NCBI GenBank assembly: GCA_964016885.1
Contig: OZ024742.1
Location: 46,686,001-46,750,000, forward strand
Reading direction: 5' to 3'
Source of the DNA: Eledone cirrhosa
Lineage: Eukaryota
Length of the DNA stretch: 64,000 nucleotides
In this document: in pieces, positions 10,991 to 64,000 of the stretch
Layout of the letters: each line of letters opens with the position of its first letter
Numbering within the stretch: position 1 is the stretch's first letter
Position numbers and translations under genes: made by a program
Notes under the pieces: generated by a model
Database searches by the model: none
What the model was told of the DNA's origin: nothing
What the model saw: the letters and a program-made list of their open reading frames with translations, nothing else

Positions 10991-13900
10991 TGCGCAGTCC
11001 CAGTTCTAGAGGGTTGCCCTGCAACAACTCCAATTTCCGCAGCAGTGGCTCTAGAGTCAATACATACAGAATGGAGGAGAGAGGGCACCCCTGTCGAATG
11101 GAACGCGTGATTGCGAACGGCTCCGATAGGTAGCCGTTCACCTTGACCCTCGAGCAGATGCTGGTGTGCATCGCCTAGATCCCGCCTCTGAAAACGAGAC
11201 CCGAACCAGCCGCCTTGAGACCCGCTTCCAAGTATCGATGGTCGACCCTATCGAATGCCTTAGACTGATCCAAATTGATCAGAGCCCCAACGAAGCCAGC
11301 TTTACTACCCACCCTCTCTATGATGTATCGCATGAGGTGGAGGTTGTCGTGTATGGACCTGGTCGGAATTGCTCACGTTTGCGCTTTCCTTACCAGGTTC
11401 TCGAGGACAAGCGCCAACCTCGTCGCTAGTACCTTGACCAAAATCTTTAACTCTGTGTTGAGCAGAGTTATGGGCCTGAAGTTGTTAATTTCGTCCCCCT
11501 TGTTGTCGTCTTTCCTGATCAGCGTTACTACGCCCTTGCCTGCAGAACTGGGAATTCTCCTGTTCTGCTGCCAATTGCAGTAGACGGCTTCGAGGACGCC
11601 AGAGAACAAGTCCGGCATGCCTACGTAAAACTTATAGGGTAGACCATCTAGACCTGGTGACTTGCGTTCCTCACAGCGGCCCAGAGCGTCCCGTATCTCA
11701 GTATCCGTGATCGGTCTTTTGCAGAACTCGGCGTCCGTGTTCGAGAGACGCGGCAGGTCGTCGAGGTATGAACTAAAGTCCATTACCCGGTTCGGCTCAC
11801 CGTCGTTCTGCTCAAACAGTGGCGCAAAGTGCTGCTGAAAGGCCGCGCACATTTGCTTGGGGTCAAGTAGCACGCGCCCGTTTTTGTCTTTCAAAGACCG
11901 AATCGTGGACTTGTTGCCACTTTTTGCCTCCGCCACTCGGGGCCAGCTGACAGCTTTCGCTCCTTCGTTTCCTAGAGCACCTGTTTTGCTTCTGACCACG
12001 CAGCCTTCGTATTTCGGGTCGAAGAACTGGTCTAATGCCGTTGTCGACGCTAACAGTCTAGCCGCGTTTCCACTTCTAAGTGTCTCCTCTACCTTGGCTA
12101 CTATTTCTCTTTCTATTTTGTTTTTCTCTAAGGCTAACTCTCTGCTAAACTCTATCGATTCTACTCTAATTGCTTTCTTGAGAGAGTACCATCATCTATT
12201 GTTGACGATGGCTCCCGTTAACTGTTGCTTGACTAGTCTACTTATCCGTTCACTGTAAGCTTTACGTGCCGGCAACGACACGTTCAGCTTCCAGTATCCG
12301 GGTCCCTGTCTATGTATTCTATCACGGTTGACTAAGCAGACGACTAATTTGTGATCTGAGTAGGCAACCATGTGCATTCGTGGACAGCTTAACATCTCCT
12401 TGTCCCTTTCTCTAATGAAGAACCTATCTAAATACGATCTAGATGTCCCACTGCGGTTTGCCCACCTTCACTGTGGTGCAGTCGGGAAATCCAGTCGATA
12501 CCTATCGGCCAGTTGGAATTGGCCGATTAAAGTTTTGAGCCTGTTGCACACCCCTCTACTGGGACATGCTCCCACATAGTCCCATCGTGCATCTAGGATA
12601 CCATTCCAGTCCCCCACTAAAAGTAAGGAGCGAGATTTTCCCAGAAAAGACTCTGAACGCTTAAAGAAGTCTGGCCGTGATTGCGATTGCCCGGTCAGGG
12701 CATAAACGGCAACCAGTCTGAAGGCTCCACATACTGTTCACGTCTAGGACTACCAGTCTACCCTCCGGGTCCAAGTGTACTTGCTGTACTCCGACATCCA
12801 GGTTCTTCCGAAACATGACAGCCACTCCCCCTCTACCTCCTGGCTGACAGAGAGATGCGTAGATCTCAAAGTCGTCGAAGATGGGGGTTAGCTGCTGCCT
12901 GTTGTGGATCCTGGACTCGGTGGTGGCTATCACATCCATACCGTGTGACCTAAAGTCGTTTAAAAGTTGGCCCTGTTTGCAGGGCATCCCTAGGCCACGC
13001 ACATTCACGCTTCCAGCTCGTAAACTAGCCATGTTGGTGGAGAAGAGTTGGCGAAAAGGACGAAAAGGTGCATTTACCTTTTCGTTTCCTGGAGATCGGG
13101 TTGTTCAATCTCCATTTCAGTTCTGGTGGGGGTGTTGGGTGGGGTGGAGAAACATTTTACTAAGACGTGGTTAATAGGTTTTTGACAGGGGTTGCCAACA
13201 TCCTGCGAAAACTGTTCTTTCAATTTCTGATAGGTTTCTATCGAAAACCTTATTAGTTTTAGGTGTGGAGACGATTCTGCTTTGACGAAAGTTTTGACCT
13301 CCGTCTCCACCTTGGAGTTTGGGGAGATGACCTCCATCAAACTCTTGTTGTTTGTGTTGATGTATGCGCATTGTTGTTTGTGTTTTTGTTGTGTTGTTTT
13401 AATTTGTTGTTCGTCCGGGAGTTTTCTTTTTATGGTGGGTGGTTGTGTTTGGGGTAGTGTTGGTGATGGTTTTTCTGGTAGGGGGATGTTTGACTGTGGT
13501 GTTGTTTGTGTTGTTGTTTGTGTCTGTGGTTGTGTGTTGGTTTTGGTGATTGGAGTTTTGGGGGTTTTGTGGTGTCTCTTTTTGGCTTTTTAGATTTCCG
13601 AGGCTCTCCTTCTTCTTCACTTAAAGGAGAAGCAGCCTCATCTGTCGGTGAATAATCATCGTCAGGTGTGTGGGGTAGGGGTATGTTGTGTGGTGGTGGT
13701 CTTTTGGTGTGTGTGTTTGTGGTAGTGTTTGATGGAGTGGGATGGAGTGGGGCTGTGTTCTTCAGGGGTGTTGTCTGTGTTTTTTCTGTTGTTGTTGGTT
13801 GAGTGGCTGTTTGTTTGGTGTGTTTGCTCGTTTCGTCTGTTGTTGTACTTCTAGTGGTGGTTGTTTTGGTGTTGGTGTTGGTAATAGTGTTTTTTTAATG

Positions 13901-48338: not shown

Positions 48339-48340
<2 letters not shown>
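47135..48340 (-). mobile_element. R4/Dong-type LINE RT fragment
   Basis: WKSPGPDGLQGYWIK, NYRPITCL, EQKGC, GIFQGDSLSPLL, INHLLFVDDLKLF. Confidence 0.9.
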
Positions 48341-48399
<59 letters not shown>

Positions 48400-48642
48400 T
48401 TTTCTTTATTAACCACAAGGGTTTACATAAAGTAGACATTAAGGACAGTACAGGACAATACAGGACGGTACAAATGAGCATTTCTGCGTGTAAAAAAACA
48501 GAGGTTGAAATAAAATAACAAAGAAAAATTCCCCAATAGGGGGGAGACTTCCAAGGGACATTTGTGGAGAAAGCCCATTAAAAGACCACAGTGGCCCTGA
48601 CCACCAGGGCAAGTGCCCTCTCCCAGTTTTTCCACCTTTAAT

Positions 48643-51600
48643 TTACAGACACATACTCAGAGAAGGCCCATTCATTCGGGCCATACTTGCTTCTCTCACC
48701 CATCTTTCAACAAAATGCTGGGAAGAGAGCACTTCCCTCTCTACCCTGATTTTCCTTTTCAAATAAAATTTGAAAAAGTTAATCAGGACATCACCGAAGA
48801 TGTAAGTGCTCGTCTTCAGCCCTTTCAAACGTGTCCACCATACTATCTCTTTCGCCATGGCCACCAGACAGATAAAAACTGCCTGCCCTTCCAGGCTAAA
48901 GGAAGGGGGCGGGGCAATCCTCACGATGGACTCAGCTGATAGCTGGATCCGTCCTACACGTGACAGCAGGTGTTCGACATAAACCCACAAGTCAGCAATG
49001 CTCGGACACTGCACGAGTGCGTGCAGGACGGTTTCGTCGCCCTGCGCGCATCTCGGACATGCCCGGGGGACGGCACCTCCATGCCTGTAGAGTTCATCCC
49101 GAACTGGCAAAGCTCCTCGGTAGCACTGCCAGGCCAGGGATTTCTGGAAGTTGTCCATAGGCCCCGGCCCGAAAGTCCTTCCGAAGAGATTGGCTAGTTG
49201 ATTTTCGTCGACGCCTAGAGTTTCTCCAAGTACGTCGTCGCTCTTCCCCTCCACTAATCCCCTATAGAACGCCAAGGTGGAGTTTCCACCGATCACATTG
49301 CCCGATTGGTCGAGGGCTGTGAGCGCCTGAAGACATTCCAGTCTCCAAGCGCTCCTTCTCGGTCTTCGCTTGACCCAGGACTGCAGCTCCGTCAAGGAGA
49401 CGAGCTGGGGAAAAACGTGTCTTGCAAACGGCGACCACACCTGATCACCGTCGAGGAAGAGGTGGAGATGTCGTAGCCTGAGCGCGTGTCTGCGAATCAT
49501 CAGCCACGGCATGCCCAGCCCTCCACGTAGCGGGTGTTGACAGCAGATGGACCGCCTGACCATCGGAGCGCGTCCCTTCCACAAGAAGCGAAAGAGCAAA
49601 CGCTCCAGCGCAGTCAGGCGGGGCTTAGGACAAGGTACGACGGTCAGGCGGTAGTAGATGACGGATGCGATGTACGCATTCGCCACCTCCGCTCGACCTT
49701 TCAGGGATAGCTTCCTCTCGGCCCATTTCTGGGTGAGAGAAGCCACACTGCTCGTCACCTCGTCCCAGTTTTTGTCCGTCTGGAGGTCTGGACCGAACCA
49801 GACCCCTAGCAATTTAACCGGTCCGTCCGTCCAGCGCCCGACGACGCTGTTGGACGGCATGGACCTGCCTCTCCGGGTGCCGAGCTGCAGGCCCACTGAC
49901 TTTTCCTGGCTGATCATTGCTCCTGTCACCGCTTCGTATTCTCTTAGTGTAGTGCCGATCGCCTCGATGTGTTTGGCGTTCGACACCACTACGGTGACAT
50001 TGTCGGCATATGCTGACACGGATCTTCCGCATCCTAGTTCGCGCGGGACCCCCCTCAACGTCTCCAGTTTGTGCAGTAATGGCTCGAGAGTCAATACGTA
50101 CAATAGGGACGAGAGGGGACATCCTTGGTGGACAGAGCGCATGATGTTGAACGGTTCCGAAAGGTGACCGTTCACTCTCACTACAGAGCAGATGTCGCTG
50201 TGCATGGCAGCGCCCTCAGGACTGCCGTTAGGTAACGATGGTCGACCCTATCGAAGGCTTTCGACTGATCTAAATTGATCAAAGACCCACCCGTGCCAGG
50301 TTCCCTAGCTACCCTCTCTACGATGTATCGCATGAGGTGGAGGTTGTCGTGGATGGATCTGTCGGGAATGGTGCATGTCTGTGCCTCTCCCACCAGACCA
50401 CCAACGACAAGCGCCAACCTCTTTGCTAGCACCTTGGCCAAAATCCTGAACTCTGTGTTTAGCAGAGTTATGGGCCTAAAATTATCTATGTTATCCCCCT
50501 TGTTCGGATCCTTTCTCAGCAACGCCACCGCTCCTCGGCTCACAGAGCTGGGAATTCTCCCGTTCTGTTGCCAGTTGCAGTAGACGTCCGCCAAGAGGCC
50601 TCCGAACAAGTTTGGCATTTGTACGTAAAATTCATACGGCAGACCATCCAAACCAGGCGATTTACCCCTTGTGCAACTAGTCATTGCATCCCGTACTTCA
50701 GCGGTTGTTATCGGCTTTTCGCAACACTCCGCCTCAGTGGCCGAAAGCCGCGGCAGTCCGTCGAGGTAGACACTAAAGTCCATCCCTCGATCCGGCCCGC
50801 CACTGCCCCCGAACAGTTGAGCGAAGTGTCGCTGAAAAGCTTCACACATTTGCCCGGGATCGAGTAGCATGCGCCCGTCGTGGTCCACCAAAGACCGGAT
50901 CGTGGCTTTGTTGCCACGACGCGCCTCCGCCACTCGGGCCCATTGAACGGCTTTCGTCCCCTCGTGTCTGAGAGCACGCACCCTAGCTCTGACAACGCAG
51001 CCTTCGTGCTTTGCATTGAAGAATTGGTCAAGGGCCAATTTCGCCGCAAGTACGTCGGTCGCGATGCCTTTGCTAAGCGCCTCATCTAATTTTCTAACTA
51101 ATTCTCCCTCTGCTCTATTTTTCTCTATTGCTAAAGTCTTACTAAACCTAATGGACTCTATTCTAATTGCTCTTTTCAGAGCAAACCACCACTTGTTGTT
51201 GACGATGGCCCCCGTCAACGCCCCGTCAACGCTTAACTAGTTCGCTAATCCGGTCTCTGTCGGCCTTGCGCGCTGGTAAGGACGCGTTTAGCTTCCAGTA
51301 GCCGGGTCCTCGTCTATGAAGCCTATCTAAGTCAAACACACAGATCTCGAATTTGTGGTCCGTGTAGCTGACTATCTTGAATTGTGGACAGCCTATGCTA
51401 GACCTATCTATTTCCCTACAAAATACTCTATCTAGATATGATCTGGATGACCCTATGCGATTTGTCCAAGTCCACATTGGTACATTCTGGAAATCCATTC
51501 GGTACCTGTCAGACAGTTCAAAACGTCTGAGCAGGTTGGTGAGACTCTTGCACCCTCCTTCCCTATCCACTAATCCCACACAATCCCAGCGTGCATCTAA

Positions 51601-52035
51601 GATCCCGTTCCAGTCGCCCACTTACACTAAAGAGCGGGACGTTCCAAGAAAGGTCTCCAGACGCCGGAAGAAATCAGGCCGCCCTGCTCCTGTCGGGGCA
51701 TAAACGGCAACTAACCTGAAAGCTTGGCCTTCTCCGCTGGTCACGTCCAGCACCACCAACTTACCTTCTGGGTCCAGGAAGATGGCCCGTATGGCAAGAT
51801 CCAAACCTCTCCGAAAGAGCACAGCAACTCCTCCCCCCGATCCCGGACGGCTGGGAGATGCGTACACATCGTAGCCGCCGAAGATCGGTGCGAAAGCCTG
51901 TGCTTCGGAGATTCTGGTCTCGCTGATGGCCACTACATCTATGTTTAGTGACCTGAGGTCGTTGAGGAGGTGGCCCTGCTTCCATGACGACCCCAAGCCA
52001 CGCGCATTTATGCTGCCTATTCTGAGTGAGGTCAT
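48643..52035 (-). pseudogene. Tx1 ORF2 (APE endonuclease + RT + CCHC), frameshifted
   Basis: SINARGL, GDWN, YLDR, TDH; KSPGLDGL, QGCPLS, YADN; CPRC..ETVLHALVQC. Confidence 0.92.
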
Positions 52036-52069
52036 GTTGAAAAGGAGTGGAAAAGATGGGAAAAACCAC

Positions 52070-54103
52070 TTACCTTACTTCTCGTAGGGGAAAGACGGTT
52101 TTTCCACCCTTTTCACTGCTTGTGGCCTCCTCAGGAAGGATGTCCTTATAAATCCTCCTGGAGAGTGCTTGTCGGAAGTCTCTGATGTCTTTGGGGAATT
52201 TTTGTTTTAGTGTCATGTACGTTTTCTGTGTGATGCGAGTGATTTGTATGTGTGGAGGTGGTGTGAATTTTGGGGTTGTTGTGTAGTCTTTTTCTGTGAT
52301 GCTGGTGTTGTTTTGGATGTAGTGTAATAATTGCTTGTTGTTCAAATTTAATGCTGTCTAGTGTGTATCGTTTTGGTTGTTTTGTTTTGTTTGCGTTTGT
52401 TGTGGATTTGTTTCTGTTTCGCATTTTGGTGACTTTTGTGGTGTAGGTGATGGTGGTGTTGGGGTTAATGATGGTGATGGTGTTGGTGTTTGGGTTGATG
52501 GGGTTGGTGATGCTGGTGTGGATGGTGGCATATCTGTCCTAACTTTTTTGTTTCTTAATTTATTTGTTTCCCTCTGTATTTTGTTTTTGGAGGGGGAAGG
52601 AAGAGAATTTTTTCTTTTTTGGTTTCTTTTTTTTTTTTCGGATATCGTTTCCCACTCCTCGTCGTCACAATCTGTCTCCAGTTGTGATAGGCCGGGGAGT
52701 GGAATATCCTCCACAGCCGTTAGTTTTGGTTGTGGCGTGGTGGATGGTGTAGGCGCTGGTGCTAGTTCTGAAGCGTTGGGTGGTGGTGGTGTTGGTTTTG
52801 CTGGTGGTGGTGGTGGTGGTGGTGTTGGTTTTGCTACTGTTGCTGGGGTTGTTGCTGTTATAGTTGCTTCTGTTGTTGGTGCTACAGTTGTTGCTGCCAT
52901 CTCTGCTACTGGTGGTGTTGATGGTTGTGTCACTGGGGTGGGTAGGAGAGGTGGCCTCAACCTTTTAGCCTGAGGGCAGAAAGCCCTTAGGTGGGTTCCT
53001 TCACCACAAACGACACATCTAGGTCTTCTGCCCTCGACAATTACCGTGAGGTGGCTGCCGTCAGTGAGGTCTATTACCTCTGGGATCTCCTCAATGCTTA
53101 TTTGGTCCGCTTGGATCAGGAGCTCCATCCCAGATCCGGACCAGTTCTCCTGCTTTTCTTTTGCTATTGCTATTATTTTCGTGTTGGCTTCGATGCCGGC
53201 GAGGACAGCCGCTATTAGCCAGGGAATTTCGATGGCCGATGGAACGTGGGTCACCCTGATCTTTACGAGTCTCTGGCCACAATAGCTTGGGACGAGTGTG
53301 AAGTCGTCACTTCTTAATGGGGCCATGGAGTGTTCTCTAGCCTCCTCTGGTGTTTCAAAGAACACGTCCACGGTTCCATACTTTTGCCCACGTCTGTTGT
53401 AGGTTTTTCTTGCCCACACATGTCCCAAAGCTTTTTGGATTTGGGACTCGGATGCCCGTTCCACTCGGCGCGATTTTACATTTATTGTTCTATACGACAC
53501 GGTGCATAGGCGCCGATGCTCCATTTTATTAGGTGGGGGGGGGGGGGGGTTGAGGCTGACCCTGTACCCATCTTTCTTTACCATTTGTTTGGCATTTTCT
53601 AAATCCTCCTGAGTTACCGTAAATGCTTCGAACTGTTTTGCTACTCTGGCGAAACTGAGGGGGGGGGGGGTTATAATGTCATTGTTGTTGTTGTTGCTAT
53701 CGTTAATATTAATTTTAGTTTCAGTTGTGGTGGTGGTGACGTCAGTCGTCTTTGGTGGGGAAGAGTCCATGTTGCTTGATTTCATTTCGACATCACGAGT
53801 TAATTTATTTTTTTCTTCTTTTGTTTCTGTTGTCGCGGTGGTGGTGGTGGTGGTGGTTGTCGCGGTGGTGGTGGTGGTGGTGGAGGCTTTAACACCTGCA
53901 GTCATTGGTAATGGCGGGAAATGAATGTCTGCCTGAGACAAATTTAAAATATTGCTAGTGCTTATATTTTTTTTTGTGTTGGCAAACGTAGTAACATTTA
54001 CAATGGTGGTGTCGGTGTGAGATGTTAATTTGTGAGGAAGGCTTTCAGCTGCTTCGTGCAGAGGTGAATTAGCCATCTTTTTCAAAGAAATTTTTTTGAT
54101 CAT
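52070..54103 (-). pseudogene. Tx1 ORF1 (gag-like; CCHC knuckle, Pro/Thr-rich region, C-terminal domain); one internal stop at 52358
   Basis: CVVCGEGTHLRAFC knuckle; the other copy reads Tyr at the stop position. Confidence 0.85.
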
Positions 54104-54266
54104 AATAAAAGTTTAAATTTTGGGCACAATTAAATTTTCGGAAAACAATGTATGTGCGCTTATAAACAGTTAACAATAAAATTTTCCATAAATGACAATT
54201 TTTAACAAACGGAAATAACAAACCTTTGCGGAGCTCACGATGATACGATTTACTACGTAGGTCGCC

Positions 54267-54299
<33 letters not shown>

Positions 54300-54310
54300 T
54301 ATTATTATTA

Positions 54311-56289
54311 CAACTGCATTTATCTTGCTTTATGTTCATACGAGTTATCACCAAGTCACAACCAGTGACCTCAAGAGACAACAAGGTCCGCCATGTTCAA
54401 GAAAGAACATACATACTCACACATGCATCTTTAGTGTTTAGACTTGTGATGAACTTATATTGACAGAATCTTCCTTAGTATATGGGCAGTTCCCATTAGT
54501 ATTATCTTTTGTATTTCTCCTATACGCGGGTTTCCTGGGATTTGCGATAAGTAATCATTAGACCCCTTAGGTATCATTCCCAGAGCGCCTACAACCACTG
54601 GTATTGTTTTAGTTCTCAATTTCCACATTTTTTCCAATTTCTATCTCCAGGTCCTTATACTTGCTCAATTTTTCAAATATTTTTATAGATACATTCTTGT
54701 CTATTGGAACAGACATATCAATTAGCAGGCATACCCTCTTTTTGAAGTCCTTCAATATTATATCAGGTCTATTTGCATCTATTTTTCGGTCTGTTTGGAT
54801 GCTAAAGTTCCACAAGATTGAGATGTGATCTTTTTCAAGTATGGGAGGTGGTTGATGTTCCCACCAATTCTTTTGATGGGGCAAGACAAAATGCTTACAC
54901 ATTATCCAATGTATGTATTGTGCAGCTCTGTCATGCCTGTTTAGGTATTCGGTTGGAGCTATAGGACTGCACATTGAAATTATATGGTCAATGGTCTCTG
55001 GTTGTTTTTTGCATACACGGCATAATGGGCTGCATCCATTTTTTATTATGTTGGCTTGGTAATTTTTTGTTGGCAGACACTGATCTTGTGCTGATATAAT
55101 CAGTCCTTCAGTCTCCGATTTCAGTCCAGAGGATGCCAACCACAGATGGGTTAAAGTTTTGTCAACATCAGGATTGTTAGGTCGCTCTGGGTATTTTCCA
55201 TACAGAGGCTTTTCTTGCCATTTCTTAGCCAGTTTCTGTAGCAGTTCTTTCTTTGCAGTTACTTTTACTTGCTTTGCTTTTTCTGTGTTTTCCATTTCAG
55301 CAGTAAATGGAACTTCTGAAATTTGTAGTCCATTACTGTATCTTTGTGTATCTTTTGTAATGGAATATGATCTTTTGATGCTTTCGTGTTTCAAAACGAG
55401 TTTGATCATCCAATCATGTGATTCCCTTAGACATGTAGATAATCCAATTGTTACAGTTTTCAACGCAATGTCTAACTGGATTAACCCACGTCCTCCTTCT
55501 TTCCTAGGGAGATATATTCTATCTATATCTGCCTTAGGGTGATGCATTCTGTGCATGGTTAAGAGTTTTCGAATTTTTGTATCGAGCCTACGGATCTCTG
55601 TGCTTGACCAGTTGATGACATTGTAACTGTAGGTTACTACTGGTATGGCAAGCGTGTTTATGGCATCGATCCTATTCCTTGCATTCAATTCCGTTCTTAA
55701 GATTGCTCTTACTCTGCGGTAACATTCCTTCCTTATCCTTTCCCTCATTGTCGAGTGCTTTATTCCGTCTCCTTCACAAACACCTAGATATTTGTAAGTT
55801 TTTTCTTGATCAAGTTCTCTTATCACGTTCCCTCGATCAAGATTAATGTCTGAACTCTTCAGCAGCTTTCCTCTGGTGAACGTTGCTTTGGCGCATTTGT
55901 CTAGTCCAAACTCCATTTTAATGTCAACAATGAACTGCTCCACAGTGGATAATAGCCCTTGCAATTGTTCATCATTTTTTGCAAATAGTTTCAGGTCATC
56001 CATGTAGAACAAGTGATTAATGGTTTTGTCATAGACTTTATATCCATGTTTTGTTTCATTGAGCATTTTACTTAATGGTATAAGTGCGATGCAGAATAAA
56101 AGCGGTGATAAAGAGTCACCTTGAAAAATTTCACAATTAATATTAACTTCTCCAGCTTCCAGTGATTTTGTTTCAAAAGGAGTGTATTTTTCCATGTCTT
56201 CATACTGAATGACAAAAACCTCCTGACAACGGGGGATATTTTGAAAATCTCTAAACATTTTTCAATCCAATCGAAGGCTTTTTATAATC

Positions 56290-56290
<1 letters not shown>
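54311..56290 (-). mobile_element. 5'-truncated Dong/R4-type LINE copy 1 with (TAA)n tail
   Basis: QGDSLSPLLF, FYMDDLKLF, CRVC..ETIDHIISMC, NRPDIILKD..LLIDMSVP..K..KY. Confidence 0.93.
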
Positions 56291-56345
<55 letters not shown>

Positions 56346-59300
56346 GGCGCCCTACGTAGTAAATCGTATCATCGTCAGCTCCGTTTGTTGTTTTCAGTTG
56401 TATAAATTGCCTTTTATGGAACATTTTTATTGTTAACTGTATATAAGTGCACATACATTGTTTTCTGAAAAGGACACTCAAAAAGATTGGGGCCTTGGGC
56501 CCAAAATTTAAACTTTTATAATTATCAAAAAAAGAATTTCTTGGAAAAATCATGGACGACTCACAGCTGCACCAAGTAGCTGAGAGCCTTCCTCACAAAC
56601 TAACACCTCACACCGATACCACCATTGTAAATATTACTACGTTTGCCAACACTAAAAATATAAGCAGTAGCAAAATTTTAAATTTGTCTCAGGCAGACAA
56701 TCATTTCCCGCCATTACCAATGACTGCAGGTGTTGAAGCCGCCACCCCCACCACCATCACAGCGACAACAGAAACAAAAGAAAAAAATAAATTATCTCGT
56801 GATATCGAAATGAATTCACCCAGAATGAACTCTTCCACACCGAACACCACTGACGCCATCACCACCACAACTGAAACTAAAATAGACAATAACAAAAATA
56901 ACGATAACAACAACAGCAACAATGAGAATAAGAAAACCACCCTGTCTTTTGCCAGAGTAGCAAAAAAGTTCGAAGCAATCCAGGTAATTCAGGAGGAATT
57001 AGAAGAAGCCAAAAGAATGGTGAAGAAAGATGGGTACAGGGTCAGCCTCACCCCACCTAATAAAATGGAGCATCGGCGCCTATGCACCGTGTCTTATCGG
57101 ACGATTAACATAAAATCGCGCCGAGTGGAACGGGCATCTGAGTCCCAAATCCCAAAATGCTTTGGGACATGTGTGGGGAAAAAAACCCACATCAGACGTG
57201 GGCAGAAATATGGAACCGTGGACGTGTTCTTTGAAACACCACAGGAGGCCAGAGAACACACCATGGCCCCATTAAGAAGTGACGACTTCACACTCGTCCC
57301 AAGCTATTGTGGCCAGAGACTCGTGAAGATCAGGGTGACCCACGTTCCCCCGGCCATCGAAATTCCCTGGCTAATGGCTGCCGTCCTCGCCAGCATCGAG
57401 GCCAACACCAAGATAATCGAAATAGCGAAAGAAAAGCAGGAAACTGGTCCGGATCTGGGATGGAGCTTCTGATCCAAGCGGACCAAAAAAGCATTGAGGA
57501 GATCCCAGAGGTAATAGACCTCACTGACGGCTGCCACCTCACCGTAATCATCGAGGGCAGAAGGCCTAGGTGTGTCGTTTGTGGTGAAGGAACCTACCTA
57601 AGGGCTTTCTGCCTCCAGGCTAAAAGGTTGAAGCCACCTCTCTTACCCACCCCAATGACTCAACCATCAACACCACCAGGCAGCAGAAATGGCAGCAACA
57701 ACAGAAGCAACTGTAACAGCAACAACCCAAGCAACAGTAGCAAAACCAACACCACCATCACCCAACGCGCCAGAACTAGCACCAGCGCCTACACCATCTA
57801 CCACGCCACAACCAAAACTAACGCCTGTGGAGGATTTTCCACTCCTCTGCTTATCGCAACTGGAGACAGATTGAGACGACGAGGAGTGGGAAACGGTATC
57901 AGGAAAAAATAAAAAAATAAAAAAATTCTCTTCCTTACCCCTCCAAAAACAAAACACAGAGGGAAACAAATAAATTATCAAACAAAAAAGTTAGGACAGA
58001 TATGCCACCATCCACACCAGCATCACCAACCCCATCACCGCAAACACCAACACCATCACCATCATTAACCCCAACACCACCATCACCAACACCACAAAAG
58101 TCACCAAAAAGGGTAACAGAAACAAACCCACAACAAACGCAAACAAAACAAAACAACCAAAACGATACACACTACACAGCATAAAATTTGATCAACAACC
58201 AATTATTACACTACATGCAACACAACACCAGCATCACAGAAAAAGACTACACAACAACCCAAAAGTTCACACAACCTCCACACATACAAATCACTCGTAT
58301 TACACAGAAAACGTACACGACACTAAAACAAAAATTCCCCAAAGACATCGGAGACTTCCGACAAACACTCTCCAGGAGGATTTATAAGGACATCAGCAGT
58401 GAAAAGGATGGACAAACCATCCTTCCTCTACGAGAAGTAAGGTAAGTGGTCTTTCCCATGTTTTCCACTCCATTTCAACATGACCTCACTCAGAATAGGC
58501 AGCATAAATGCGCGTGGCTTGGGGTCGTCATGGATGCAGGGCCACCTGCTCAACGACCTCAGGTCACTAAACATAGATGTAGTGGCCATCAGCCAGACCA
58601 GAATCTCCGAAGAACGGGCCTTCGCACCGATCTTCGGCGGCTACGATGTGTACGTATCTCCCAGCCGTCCGGGATCGGGGGGAGGAGTTGCTGTGCTTTT
58701 TCAGAGAGGTTTGGATCTCGCCATACGGGCCATCTTCCTGGATCCAGAAGGTAAGTTGCGGGTGCTAGACGTGACAAGCGGAGACGGGCAAGTTTTCAGG
58801 CTAGTGGCCGTCTATGCACCGACAGGTTTCTTCCGGCGTCTGGAGAACTTTCTTGGAACGTCCCGCTCTTTAGTGTTAGTGGGCGATGTGGAACGGGATC
58901 TTAGATGCACGCTGGGACTGTGTGGGATTAGCGGATAGGGGAGGAGGGTGCAAGAGCCTCACCAACCTGCTCAGGCGTTTTGAAATGTCTGACAGGTACC
59001 GATTGGATTTCCCGAATGTGCCAATGTGGACTTGGACAAATCTCATAGGGTCATCCAGATCATATCTAGATAGAGTATTTTGTAGGGAAATACATAGGTC
59101 TAGCATAGGCTGTCCATAATTCAAGATAGTCAGCTACACGGACCACAGATTCGTGATCTGTGTGCTTGACTTAGATAGGCTTCATAGACGAGGACCCGGC
59201 TACTGGAAGCTAAACGCGTCCTTACCAGCGCGCAAGGCCTACATAGACCGGATTAGCGAACTAGTTAAGCGGGCGTTGACGGGGGCCATCGTCAACAACA

Positions 59301-61670
59301 AGTGGTGGTTTGCTCTGAAAAGAGCAAGTAGAATAGATTCCATTAGGTTTAGTAAGGCTGTAGCAATGGAGAAAAATAGAGCAGAGGGAGAATTAGTTAG
59401 AAAATTAGACGAGGCGCTTAGCAAAGGCAAGCGACCGACGTACCTGCGGCGAAATTGGCCCTTGACCAATTCTTCAATGCAAAGCACGAAGGTTGCGCTG
59501 TCAGAGCTTGGGTGCGTGCTCTCAGACACGAGGGGACGCAAGCCGTTCAATGGGCCCAAGTGGCGGAGGCGCGTCGTGGCAACAAAACCACGATCCGGTC
59601 TTTGATGGACCACGACGGGCGCATGCTACTCGATCCCGGGAAAATGTGTGAAGCTTTTCAGCGACACTTCGCTCAGCTGTTCGGGGGCAGCGGCGGGCCG
59701 GATTGAGGGATGGACTTTAGTGTCTATCTCGACGGACTGCCGCGGCGCTCGGCCACTGAGGCGGAGTGTTGCGAAAAGCCGATAACAGCCGCTGAAGTAC
59801 GAGAGGCAGTACTAGCGACAGTCCTGTGGGCGGCTGGCTTTGGGCCCGTCTTCAGAGGCTGGATCGCTGCCATGCACAGCCGCATCTGCTCTGTAGTGAG
59901 AGTGAACGGTCAGCTTTCGGAACCGTTCAACATCATGCGTTCGATCAGCCCGTCCCTCTTGTACGTATTGAATCTAGAGCCATTACTGCACAAACTAGAG
60001 ACGTTGAGGGGGGTCCCGCGCGAACTAGGATGCGGAAGATCCGTTTCAGCATATGCGGACGATGTCTCCGTAGTGGTGTCGAACGCCAAACACATCGAGG
60101 CGATCGGCACTACACTAAGAGAATACGAAGCGGTGACAGGAGCAATGATCAACCAGAAAAAGTCAGTGTCCTGCAGCTCGTCACCTGGAGAGGCAGGTCC
60201 ATGCCGTCCAACAGCGGCGTCGGGCGCTGGACGGACGGACCGATTAAATCGCTCGGGGTTCGGTTCGGTTCGGATCTCCAGACGGACAAAAACTGGGACG
60301 AGGTGACGAACAGTGTGGCTTCTCTCACCCAGAAATGGGCCGAGAGGAAGCTATCCCTGAAAGGTCGAGCGGAGGTGGCTAACGTGTATATCGCGTCCGT
60401 CAGCTACTACCACCTGACCGTCGTACCTTGTCCTAATCCCGGCCTGACTGCGCTGGAGCGTTTGCTCTTTCGCTTTTTGTGGAAGGGACGCACTCCGATG
60501 GTCAGGCGGTCTATCTGCTGTCAACACCCGATACGTGGAGGGCTGGGAATGCCGTGGCTGATGATGCGCAGACACGCGCTCAGGCTACGACATCTCCACC
60601 TTTTCCTCGACGGTGATCAGGTGTGGTCGCCGTTTGCTAGACGCGTCTTTCCCCAGCTCGTCTCCTTGACGGAGCTGCAGTCCTGCGTCAAGCGAAGACG
60701 GAGAGGGAGCGCTTGGAGTCTGGAATGTCTTCAGGCGCTCACAACCCTCGACCAATCCGGCAACGTGATCGGTGGAAACTCCACCTTGGCGTTCTATAGA
60801 GTATTAGTGGAGGGGAAGAGCGACAACGTACTTGGGGAAACTCTAGGCGTCGACGAAAATCAACTAGCCAATCTATTCAGAAGAACTTTCAGGCCGGGGC
60901 CTATGGACAACTTCCAGAAATCCCTGGCCTGGCAGTGCTACCGAGGAGCTTTGCCAGTTCGGGATAAACTCTACAGGCATGGAGGTGCCGTCCCCCGGGC
61001 ATGTCCGCGATGCGCGCAGGGCGATGAAACCGTTCTGCACGCACTCGTCCAGTGTCCGAGCATTGCTGCCTTGTGGGTTTATGTCGAACACCTGCTGTCG
61101 CGTGTAGAACGGATCCGGTTATCAGCTGCGTCCATCGTGAGAATTGCCACACCCTCTTCTTTTAGCCGGGAAGGGCAGGCAGTTTTTATCTGTCTGGTGG
61201 CCATGGCGAAAGTGATAGTATGGTGGACGCGTCTGAAAGGGCTGAAGACGAGCACTTACCTCTTCGGTGATGCCCTGATTAACTTTTTCAAATTTCATTT
61301 GAAAAGGAAAATCAGGGTAGAGAGGGAAGTGCTCTCTACCCAGCTTTTTGTTGAAAGATGGGCGAGAGAGGCAAGAATGGCTCGAGTGAATGGACCTACT
61401 CCGAGTATATGCCTGTAAATTGAAGGTGGAAAACTGGGAGAGGGCACTTGCCCTGGTGGTTAGGGTCACTGTGGCTCTTTAATGGGCTTTCTCCACGAAT
61501 GTCCCTCGGAAGTCACCCCCCCCTATTGGGGAATTTTTTTCATTGTTCTTTTATTACATCCTCTATTTCTTGTTTTTTACACGCAGAAATGCCCATTTGT
61601 ACCGTCCTGTATTGTCCTGTACTGTCCTTAATGTCTACTTTATGTAAACCCTTGTGGTTAATAAAGAAAG

Positions 61671-61671
<1 letters not shown>
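56346..61671 (+). mobile_element. Tx1 family B copy 2, flanked by (ATT)n, internal RT deletion near 59800
   Basis: Homologous throughout to the reverse complement of 48399-54266; AEVR joins directly to LATVL. Confidence 0.95.
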
Positions 61672-61714
<43 letters not shown>

Positions 61715-61715
<1 letters not shown>

Positions 61716-64000
61716 AGCTGCATTTATCTTGCTTTATGTTCATACGAGTTATCACCAAATCACAACCAGTGACCTCAGGAGACAACAAGGTCCGCCATGT
61801 TCAAGAAAGTTCATACTTACACACACATGCATCTTAAGGTGTTTAGACTTGTGATGAACTTATATTGACAGAATCTTCCTTAGTATATGGGCAGTTCCCA
61901 TTAGTACTATCTTTCGTATTTCTCCTATACGCGGGTTTCCTGGGATTTGCGATAAGTAATTACTAGACCCCTTAGGTATCATTCCTAGAGCGCCTACAAC
62001 CACTGGTATTGTTTTAGTTCTCAATTTCCACATTTTTCCAATTTCTATCTCCAGGTCCTTATACTTGCTCAATTTTTCAAATGTTTTTATAGATACATTC
62101 TTGTCTGTTGGAACGGACATATCAATTAGCAGGCATACCCTTTTTTAAAGTCCTTCAGTATTATATCAGGTCTATTTGCATCTATTTTTCGGTCTGTTTG
62201 GATGCTAAAGTTCCACAACATTGACATGTGATCTTTTTCAAGTACGGGAGGTGGTTGATGCTTCCACCAATTCTTTTGATGGGGCAGGTCAAAATGCTTA
62301 CACATTATCCAATGTATGTATTGTGCAGCTCCGTCATGCCTGTTCAGGTATTCGGTTGGAGCTATAGGACTGCACATTAACATTATATGATCAATGGTCT
62401 CTGGTTGTTTTTTACATACACGGCATAATGAGTTTCATCCATTTTTTATTATGTCGGCTTGGTAAATTTTATTGGCAGACACTGATCTTGTGCTGATATA
62501 ATCAGTCCCTCAGTCTCCGATTTCAATCCAGAGGATGCCAACCACTGATGGGTTAAAGTTTTGTCAACATCAGGATTGTTAGCTCTTTCTGGGTATTTTC
62601 CATACAGAGGCTTTTCTTGCCATTTCGTAGCCAGTTTCTGTAGCAGTTCTTTCTTTGTAGTTACTTTTACCTACTTTGCTTTTTCTGTGTTTTTTATTTC
62701 AGCAGTAAATGGGACTTTTGAAATGTGTAGTCCATTACTGTATCTTTGTGCATCTTTTGTAATGGAGTATGATCTTTTGATGCTTTCGTGTTTCAAAACG
62801 AGTTTCATCATCCAATCATGTGATTCCCTTAGATATGTAGATAATCCAATTGTTTCAGCTTTCAACGCAATATCTAACTGGATTAACCTACGTCCTCCTT
62901 CTTTCTTAGGGAGATATATTCTATCTGTATCTCCCTTAGGGTGATGCATTTTGTGCATGGTTAAGAATTTTCTAATTTTTGTATCGAGCCTACGGATCTC
63001 TGTGCTTGACCAGTTGATGATATTGTAACTATATGTTACTACTTGTATGTCAAGCGTTTTTATGGCATCGATCCTATTCCTGGCATTCAATTCCGTTCTT
63101 AAGATTGCTCTTACTCTGCGGTAACATTCCTTCCTTATCCTTTCCCTCATGGTCGAGTGCTTGATTCCGTCTCCTTCACAAACACCTAGATATTTGTAAG
63201 TTCCCTCTTGATCAAGTTCTCTTATCACATTCCCCCCATCAAGATTAATGTCTGAACTTTTCAGGTGAACGTTGATTTGGCGCAATTATCTAGTCCAAAC
63301 TCCATTTTAATGTCTTCACTGAATTGCTTCTCAGTGGATAATAGCCCTTGTAATTGTTCATCATTTTTTGCAAATAGTTTCAGGTCATCCATGTAGAACA
63401 AGTGATTAATGGTTTTGTCATAGACTTTATATCCATGTTTTGTTTCATTGAGCATTTTACTTAATGGTATAAGTGCGATGCAGAATAAAAGCGGTGATAT
63501 TCATGCTGAATGACAGGAACCTCCTGACAACGGGAGATATTTTGAAAATCTCTAAACATTTTTCAATCCAACTGTGTGGCAAACTATTAAATGCTTTTTT
63601 ATATTCTATCAAAGCAATTGATAGATTTTTTGTGTTTATTATGACAATCTTCCAGTATCATTTTGTTAACCAAAAGCTGATCTTTACAGACATATGAGCC
63701 TCGTTTACACCCTTTCTGCTCATTGGGAAATATATTATTTGTTATCAGGTGGTCATATGTATATTCAGTTAGGACTGATGTTAAAATTTTAAACATTGTG
63801 GTCAAGCAAGTTATCGGTATGTAATTTTTGGGATTGTTTGTCTCATCACTCTTCGGAAGTAGGAATGTAATGCCATTAACTAGCCATGATGATATCTTTT
63901 CTGGCTCCTTATCTATTTCATTGTAAAGTTGGGCTAACAGCTCATGAGACTCTGTGAAGGCATTTATCCAAAAATTTGGTATTTTGTCTTTTCCTGGGGA
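61715..64000 (-). mobile_element. Dong/R4-type LINE copy 2 (continues beyond the window)
   Basis: Highly similar to 54311-56290; extends further 5' (EQKGCKRGS, PITCL, SPGKDKI). Confidence 0.93.

Follow-up and report, generated by a model that had tools for sequence, protein, structure and literature searches.

Two-ORF retrotransposon copies in the genome of Eledone cirrhosa (3.0 Gb) carry a perfect 5' splice-site sequence that overlaps the stop codon of ORF1, which raises the question of whether this sequence begins an intron or is kept for another reason. The copies lie in a window, the whole stretch of 64,000 nucleotides analyzed here (contig OZ024742.1, positions 46,686,001 to 46,750,000), for which an earlier note had proposed that a 52-nt intron fuses ORF1 in frame to ORF2. 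The element (~5.9 kb) consists of ORF1 and an ORF2 with an APE endonuclease, a reverse transcriptase (RT) and a C-terminal zinc motif (Pfam PF03372, PF00078 and PF13966, zf-RVT), and one array copy has an intact ORF2 of 1,139 aa. It is without LTRs, ends in AATAAA and a simple-repeat tail and shows a target preference, with ATT repeats at both ends in all 13 copies examined, which often stand head to tail. It can be called a Tx1-like non-LTR retrotransposon of the Tx1/L1 clade, the label Tx1 being taken from this architecture and from the earlier note. Named homologues of its proteins were found in Octopus sinensis and O. bimaculoides, and L1-Tx1 families have been reported to be recently active in O. 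vulgaris, in a study whose available text does not mention splicing (PMC13282606).

The copy that raised the question (copy 2, family B; 56346-61672, forward strand; 89.6-92.5% identical to locus L043) is full length but decayed, with (ATT)n flanks. Its ORF1 (56552-58445) has frameshifts and a stop, so that just 86 open codons precede the ORF1 stop, where it ends in LREVR-TAA (TAA at 58443-58445), and its ORF2 (58480-61418; APE endonuclease, RT and zf-RVT) is broken into at least five frame pieces. The other full-length family-B copy (copy 1; 48398-54266, reverse strand; 96.4% identical to L043) has an early ORF1 stop at 52358-52360 and an ORF2 (52035-48643) in three pieces in three frames. 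Both copies are dead, and the continuous ORF1-APE-RT protein that the earlier note derived is impossible from either, since ORF1 and ORF2 are broken in both. The same ORF1 end, LREVR followed by a stop, is found in better copies with 373 and 459 open codons (L003 and L012) and with 482 in an array (L039/L040). The last 120 aa of ORF1 (L003, L086, L179 and others) contain a conserved C-terminal domain of 75 aa, which had no Pfam match in copy 1 and 15 database matches. Full-length copies are situated in (ATT)n microsatellites, in head-to-tail arrays with a spacing of ~5.9 kb (48340-61720 in the window; L031-L033 and L037-L042). The LINEs that abut such copies look R4/Dong-like by their C-terminal motifs.

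At the junction copy 2 reads CGA GAA GTA AG/G TAA GT (slash, splice point), in which the motif AG/GTAAGT occupies 58440-58447 and its GT 58442-58443; in copy 1 the motif is at 52068-52075 (reverse strand), with the GT at 52073. A pyrimidine-rich spacer follows (58448-58479; 72-87% pyrimidine in all 17 family representatives described below) and ends in CAAC before the ORF2 ATG at 58480. The first AG downstream is at 58492-58493, in a CAG (58491-58493) within the Leu-Arg codons of an APE motif, 52 nt from the donor, and a second in-frame CAG follows at 58500-58502 (61 nt). The candidate intron has GT...AG ends and a U1-complementary donor, and its position, its length, its phase 2 at both sites and the identical layout of copy 1 (52073 to 52022) were all as the earlier note had given them. 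The pyrimidine tract described there is also present, but it adjoins the donor, beginning ~10 nt past it, rather than the AG. The nearest branch-like pentamer is CTCAC at 58485-58489, only 5 nt ahead of the AG. A family-A copy in the window (13025-13079, reverse strand) has the same order of donor at the ORF1 stop, pyrimidine spacer and ORF2 ATG (13032); its donor is AG/GTAAAT, while most other family-A copies have AG/GTAAGT. The junction motif was matched twice in the window against 0.07 matches expected, which is more than chance.

Conservation of the motif was assessed in loci collected by zf-RVT and, separately, by an ORF2 motif blind to the donor. G/GTARGT was present in 118 of 130 junctions, some of which were fetched twice, and in 28 of the 30 in the donor-blind set. 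Seventeen representatives, one natural copy per family or subfamily, were then picked by hand; their APE identity is 46-98% (median 63%, the lowest values involving one broken copy, M), and they are related (~12 lineages), so they do not amount to 17 independent trials. AG/GT(AA, AG or GA)GT stands at the ORF1 end in 15 of the 17, whatever the frame or the stop codon, and the variants GTAAGT, GTAGGT and GTGAGT (the last in family K) as well as phases 0, 1 and 2 all occur. Positions -2, -1, +1, +2, +5 and +6 are common to 16-17 of the representatives and +3 and +4 are purines in all, while conservation falls to 53% at -3 and +7, so that the conserved span is -2 to +6. The strict motif, present at the junction in these 15, has just 4 further occurrences in ~90 kb of sense strand. 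A donor finder gave scores of at least 7.5 to 16 of the 17 junctions and to 5 of 833 control windows, which were run because such a finder looks for donors. Moreover, the 5' end of the host U1, ATACTTACCTG in all 8 loci read of 42 matches, forms its single strongest duplex within the scanned element at the junction in 14 of the 17 representatives. The perfect donor reported by the earlier note for one window is therefore conserved well beyond what that window could reveal and, judged by these sequence comparisons, is a genuine, lineage-wide 5' splice-site motif.

It could be argued that an ancestral Arg-stop-GT spelt a donor by chance and has not yet decayed. All families have one ancestor, single copies mutate the motif freely, and a chance donor does exist within ORF2: a second perfect donor is made by the codons E-G-K of the APE domain (58749-58756 in copy 2; 51759-51766, reverse strand, in copy 1). 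Among the representatives this second donor is restricted to families B and F and is an internal control for a donor made by chance from codons. By comparison, the junction motif is unchanged although its flanks have changed, as have 35 of 37 four-fold sites in APE (2 invariant), and although the ORF1 tails of B, F and M do not align with those of the other families. Neutral inheritance is consequently a very improbable account of the motif. An O. sinensis gene model (P0004, tectonic-3-like) contains an APE piece that ends at the second donor, possibly through exonization or through an error of the model.

Another possibility is that the sequence merely resembles a donor and has been conserved as a signal for termination-reinitiation or internal initiation of ORF2, or as a protein-binding site. 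In almost all families the motif does lie 25-52 nt ahead of the ORF2 ATG, accompanied by the pyrimidine tract and by CAAC-ATG as the start context, and the route of ORF2 initiation is described as an open matter in the available text of a review (PMC3894237). In phase-2 families three letters of the motif double as the stop codon, but the motif is kept with or without a stop codon in it, and both the conserved span and the variants allowed within it fit pairing with U1. This alternative is therefore considered improbable, if less so than neutral inheritance.

Whether the motif occurs outside this genome was approached in several ways. Of 13 complete-looking homologous ORF1 tails from other samples, 3 end in G-K or G-R, the codons behind them being unread; a phase-1 donor spells such ends, which hints that the motif reaches beyond this genome. 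Metagenome scans for carriers in other species gave no confirmed relative, word-based protein searches with the ORF1 tail gave no matches, and a distant APE query in this genome gave no further lineage, all 30 loci read belonging to known families.

In the model proposed by the earlier note, an intron of 50-60 nt fuses ORF1 to ORF2, the fusion provides RT and endonuclease, and the unspliced RNA serves as template. Such a join keeps the frame in family B as well as in A, J, K and L, which are phase-2 families, and a length of 52 nt falls at the bottom of the range of animal intron sizes, given as ~50-90 bp in the available text of PMC13644364; a minimum intron length for the host was looked for in the literature covered and not found. 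The conservation of acceptor and phase among relatives that characterizes a U2-type intron was not found. The earlier note had itself named phase conservation as the point on which its proposal could fail, and among the 17 representatives the donor is in phase 2 in 11, in phase 1 in 4 and in phase 0 in 2. An in-frame YAG is not maintained at the place of the proposed acceptor, the distance from the donor to the first AG ranges over 26-61 nt (26-42 nt in 11 of the 17), and families B and F have the acceptor CTCAG in common while their donors are in different phases. Six acceptor rules gave in-frame joins in 10, 7, 6, 7, 8 and 10 of the 17, a share that equals or slightly exceeds one third; part of the excess is to be expected, because the Arg-stop of the ancestor and the Arg codon of APE both have phase 2. 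In a young, intact A subfamily, with open frames of 1,172 codons, the AGs at 61, 88 and 105 nt are out of frame and an in-frame AG first occurs at 128 nt, beyond the initial 27 residues of APE, and D-major (178 copies) has no in-frame AG between 33 and 62 nt. Young intact subfamilies lack a usable in-frame acceptor.

Family I also lacks an in-frame AG. In all 4 junctions read of its six (L142, L146, L161 and L162) ATA stands where other families have the start codon of ORF2, ~12 nt upstream of the anchor, and its ORF2 frame is open upstream past the donor, overlapping the end of ORF1. ORF2 of this family may start at a non-AUG codon or be reached by recoding, and that some non-standard route to ORF2 may exist is a point in favor of the fusion model. 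Stop-codon readthrough was rejected as a general route, as spacer lengths place ORF2 in frame with ORF1 in only some families, and a -1 frameshift was rejected as no slippery heptamer was seen by eye in families A and I.

If the fusion supplied RT, its spliced RNA should be copied into the genome, because L1-clade proteins preferentially copy their own encoding RNA (PMC5860796, available text). No family-B copy without the 52 nt was found against 2,260 unspliced copies with exact flanks (<0.13% at 95%), and none without the mini-intron among 870 copies of family A, 252 of family G and 178 of family D, that is 0 of 3,560 in the four families, although ~2% of full-length human L1 copies (131 of 6,609) are reported to be spliced in the same source. 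Copies lacking exactly these 52 nt, which the earlier note had suggested looking for, were thus absent from this set. Among the protein matches to the ORF1 domain (16, one of them unrelated), none of the 15 runs into APE without the spacer, and one reads through the spacer. Taking into consideration that in-frame joins are found in 6-10 of the 17 representatives, the 52-nt intron with its gag-pol-like fusion is unsupported: as the essential route to ORF2 the fusion is largely refuted, a fusion intron as such is unlikely, and the model as a whole was given a very low probability. In contigs of four runs of unrecorded kind, over 681 nt around the junction, the 15 joints listed of 50, all of them from X1, include no 52-nt skip, and none of the loose ends listed (with 363 more beyond these) falls at the donor; these contigs have no bearing on splicing.

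Two individual copies deserve mention. In an old family-A copy (L208, G000:C2:135302702; ~93% identical to its relatives) a 128-nt GT-AG join leads in frame to TAG and is one base off; it is possibly a single spliced integrated retrotransposed element (SpIRE) or a microhomology deletion, as an AGGT microhomology gives the same join. In a young family-B copy (L177, G000:C4:91550986) 346 nt are missing, from the donor up to a GG where an intron would have its AG, which puts ORF1 in frame with a truncated ORF2. The 103 family-B copies with a non-canonical continuation of the ORF1 end, in a listing that covered continuations other than those starting with GTA and part of those starting with G, included no GT-AG join, also not to the 3' UTR acceptor.

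The retrocopy counts leave room for a spliced RNA that encodes no working RT. The donor could really be spliced to family-specific acceptors, whether just beyond the start of ORF2, within APE, at the stop of ORF2 or in the 3' UTR, and the resulting ORF1-only message would lack the ORF2 start, encode no RT and not be copied in cis, comparable to copia-type Gag. Consistent with this, almost all usable AGs are downstream of the ORF2 ATG, itself downstream of the donor, and acceptor-like YAGs are found at +401 in APE (13 of 15 families), at the ORF2 TAG stop (14 of 15) and, after a strong T-tract, as CAG in the 3' UTR of family B. L208 fits such a join except for its one base, and Ty1/copia elements offer a precedent. 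The donor is of greater importance than the acceptor in EVD. Against it, no distal acceptor common to all families was found; a universal 3' UTR acceptor was rejected because the family-B CAG is CAC in family F, and the AGs at +401 and at the stop are accounted for by codons. Moreover, some trans-mobilized copies would be expected of a short RNA that is abundant and shares the 3' end, and none of the 103 non-canonical family-B continuations is a GT-AG join. Splicing to an ORF1-only message is therefore regarded as unlikely, yet considerably more credible than the fusion. In 14 of 15 aligned families the ORF2 TAG stop follows a pyrimidine-rich run; family B has TAA.

The explanation we favor, at somewhat less than even confidence, is that the motif is a candidate U1-binding site on mostly unspliced RNA, which would govern the output of full-length against ORF1-only RNA, and not the start of a 52-nt fusion intron. 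U1 bound at this site would suppress cleavage and polyadenylation at cryptic signals in the vicinity and so yield full-length bicistronic RNA, and the adjoining pyrimidine tract would stabilize U1 or block assembly of the spliceosome, as in TIA-1/PTB-type action. Translation of ORF2 would start on the unspliced RNA, through reinitiation or internal initiation, as it does in other elements with two ORFs. The conservation of the motif regardless of frame, its being unique in the element, the absence of a conserved acceptor and of spliced retrocopies, and the presence of AATAAA upstream of the site in 15 of the 17 representatives all speak for U1 binding. Keeping such a motif also needs a reason, because intronless mRNAs are depleted of 5' splice-site motifs (PMC4380460, available text).

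Other observations speak against U1 binding. U1 is usually described as protecting downstream poly(A) signals. Here the hexamers are mostly upstream, at 200-2,200 nt and with no fixed distance, and ORF2 contains 0-2 AATAAA in 16 of the 17 representatives; this placement weakens the case for protection, and the A-richness of ORF1 by itself explains the hexamers. The near-canonical spliced junction of L208 also counts against it, and an unspliced 5' splice site can carry a cost, as it can cause nuclear retention and decay (PMC4380460, available text). By analogy with EVD, U1 binding and real splicing to an ORF1-only RNA may coexist.

The comparison with EVD, an Arabidopsis Ty1/copia element, can be drawn from the available text of PMC5580714. 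There a conserved U1 site, placed where gag meets pol, has two roles: it drives the splicing that gives the Gag RNA, and it prevents premature termination. Both elements have a conserved U1-type donor at the boundary of structural and enzymatic genes, and in both it is the unspliced RNA that transposes. By contrast, EVD has LTRs and a single ORF, and its intron, which is conserved and has been demonstrated, is coupled to early termination, whereas the element described here is non-LTR, has two ORFs and no conserved acceptor, its donor being known from DNA sequence. The kinship is only one of working alike, by analogy, and does not make the element a member of that group. Human L1 SpIREs likewise arise from an L1-clade RNA with a conserved donor that mostly escapes splicing, but the human donor is in the 5' UTR (PMC5860796, available text), and the donor described here is at the ORF1 end and has a single near-case of a spliced copy. 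The nuclear-retention activity of 5' splice-site motifs in human cells is a further case of splicing-independent action on unspliced RNA (PMC4380460, available text). The Tx1 elements Kibi and Koshi are also two-ORF APE-RT elements within simple repeats; their targets are (TC)n or (TTC)n rather than (ATT)n, and a donor motif is unmentioned in the available text (PMC4494074).

In a retrovirus, the major donor of HIV-1, bound by U1, suppresses the upstream poly(A) site of the 5' LTR independently of splicing. A conserved donor where ORF1 of a Tx1 or L1 element ends was not described in the literature covered, which comprised few subscription journals and not Repbase Reports and was in part available as partial text. 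The available text of a review of ORF2 biogenesis names reinitiation, IRES and 2A, not splicing (PMC3894237), and two surveys that include Tx1 do not contain "splic" in the main text (PMC7140322 and PMC11203168); PMC3159450 was set aside as irrelevant, its intron being a reporter intron. The conserved U1 site, as read from the genome, is real and, apparently, undescribed.

It is conceivable, though we think it rather doubtful, that the Tx1 lineage independently evolved a copia-like U1 switch, in which bound U1 would lead to full-length RNA and splicing to an uncopied ORF1-only RNA or, in some families, an ORF1-ORF2 fused RNA. If this were true, the ratio of ORF1p to ORF2p in an L1-clade element would be under splice-site control. 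How two-ORF LINEs come to produce abundant ORF1p and scarce ORF2p is not settled, and the usual answer is translational. The conservation of a donor throughout a radiation of active families, with 12,121 motif matches in the genome, and in an RNA that needs to be unspliced to transpose, points to a nuclear, U1-based layer of control. Thousands of strong donors have thereby been scattered through the host genome.

Two further observations concern the genomic setting. Family G is very young, with 252 near-identical junctions, and its listed copies on C1-C3 lie within ~31 Mb of contig ends, unlike those of B and D. The U1 snRNA genes of the host are arranged in tandem arrays with a period of 2.67 kb (G000:C2:180973544-180995099; C1128).
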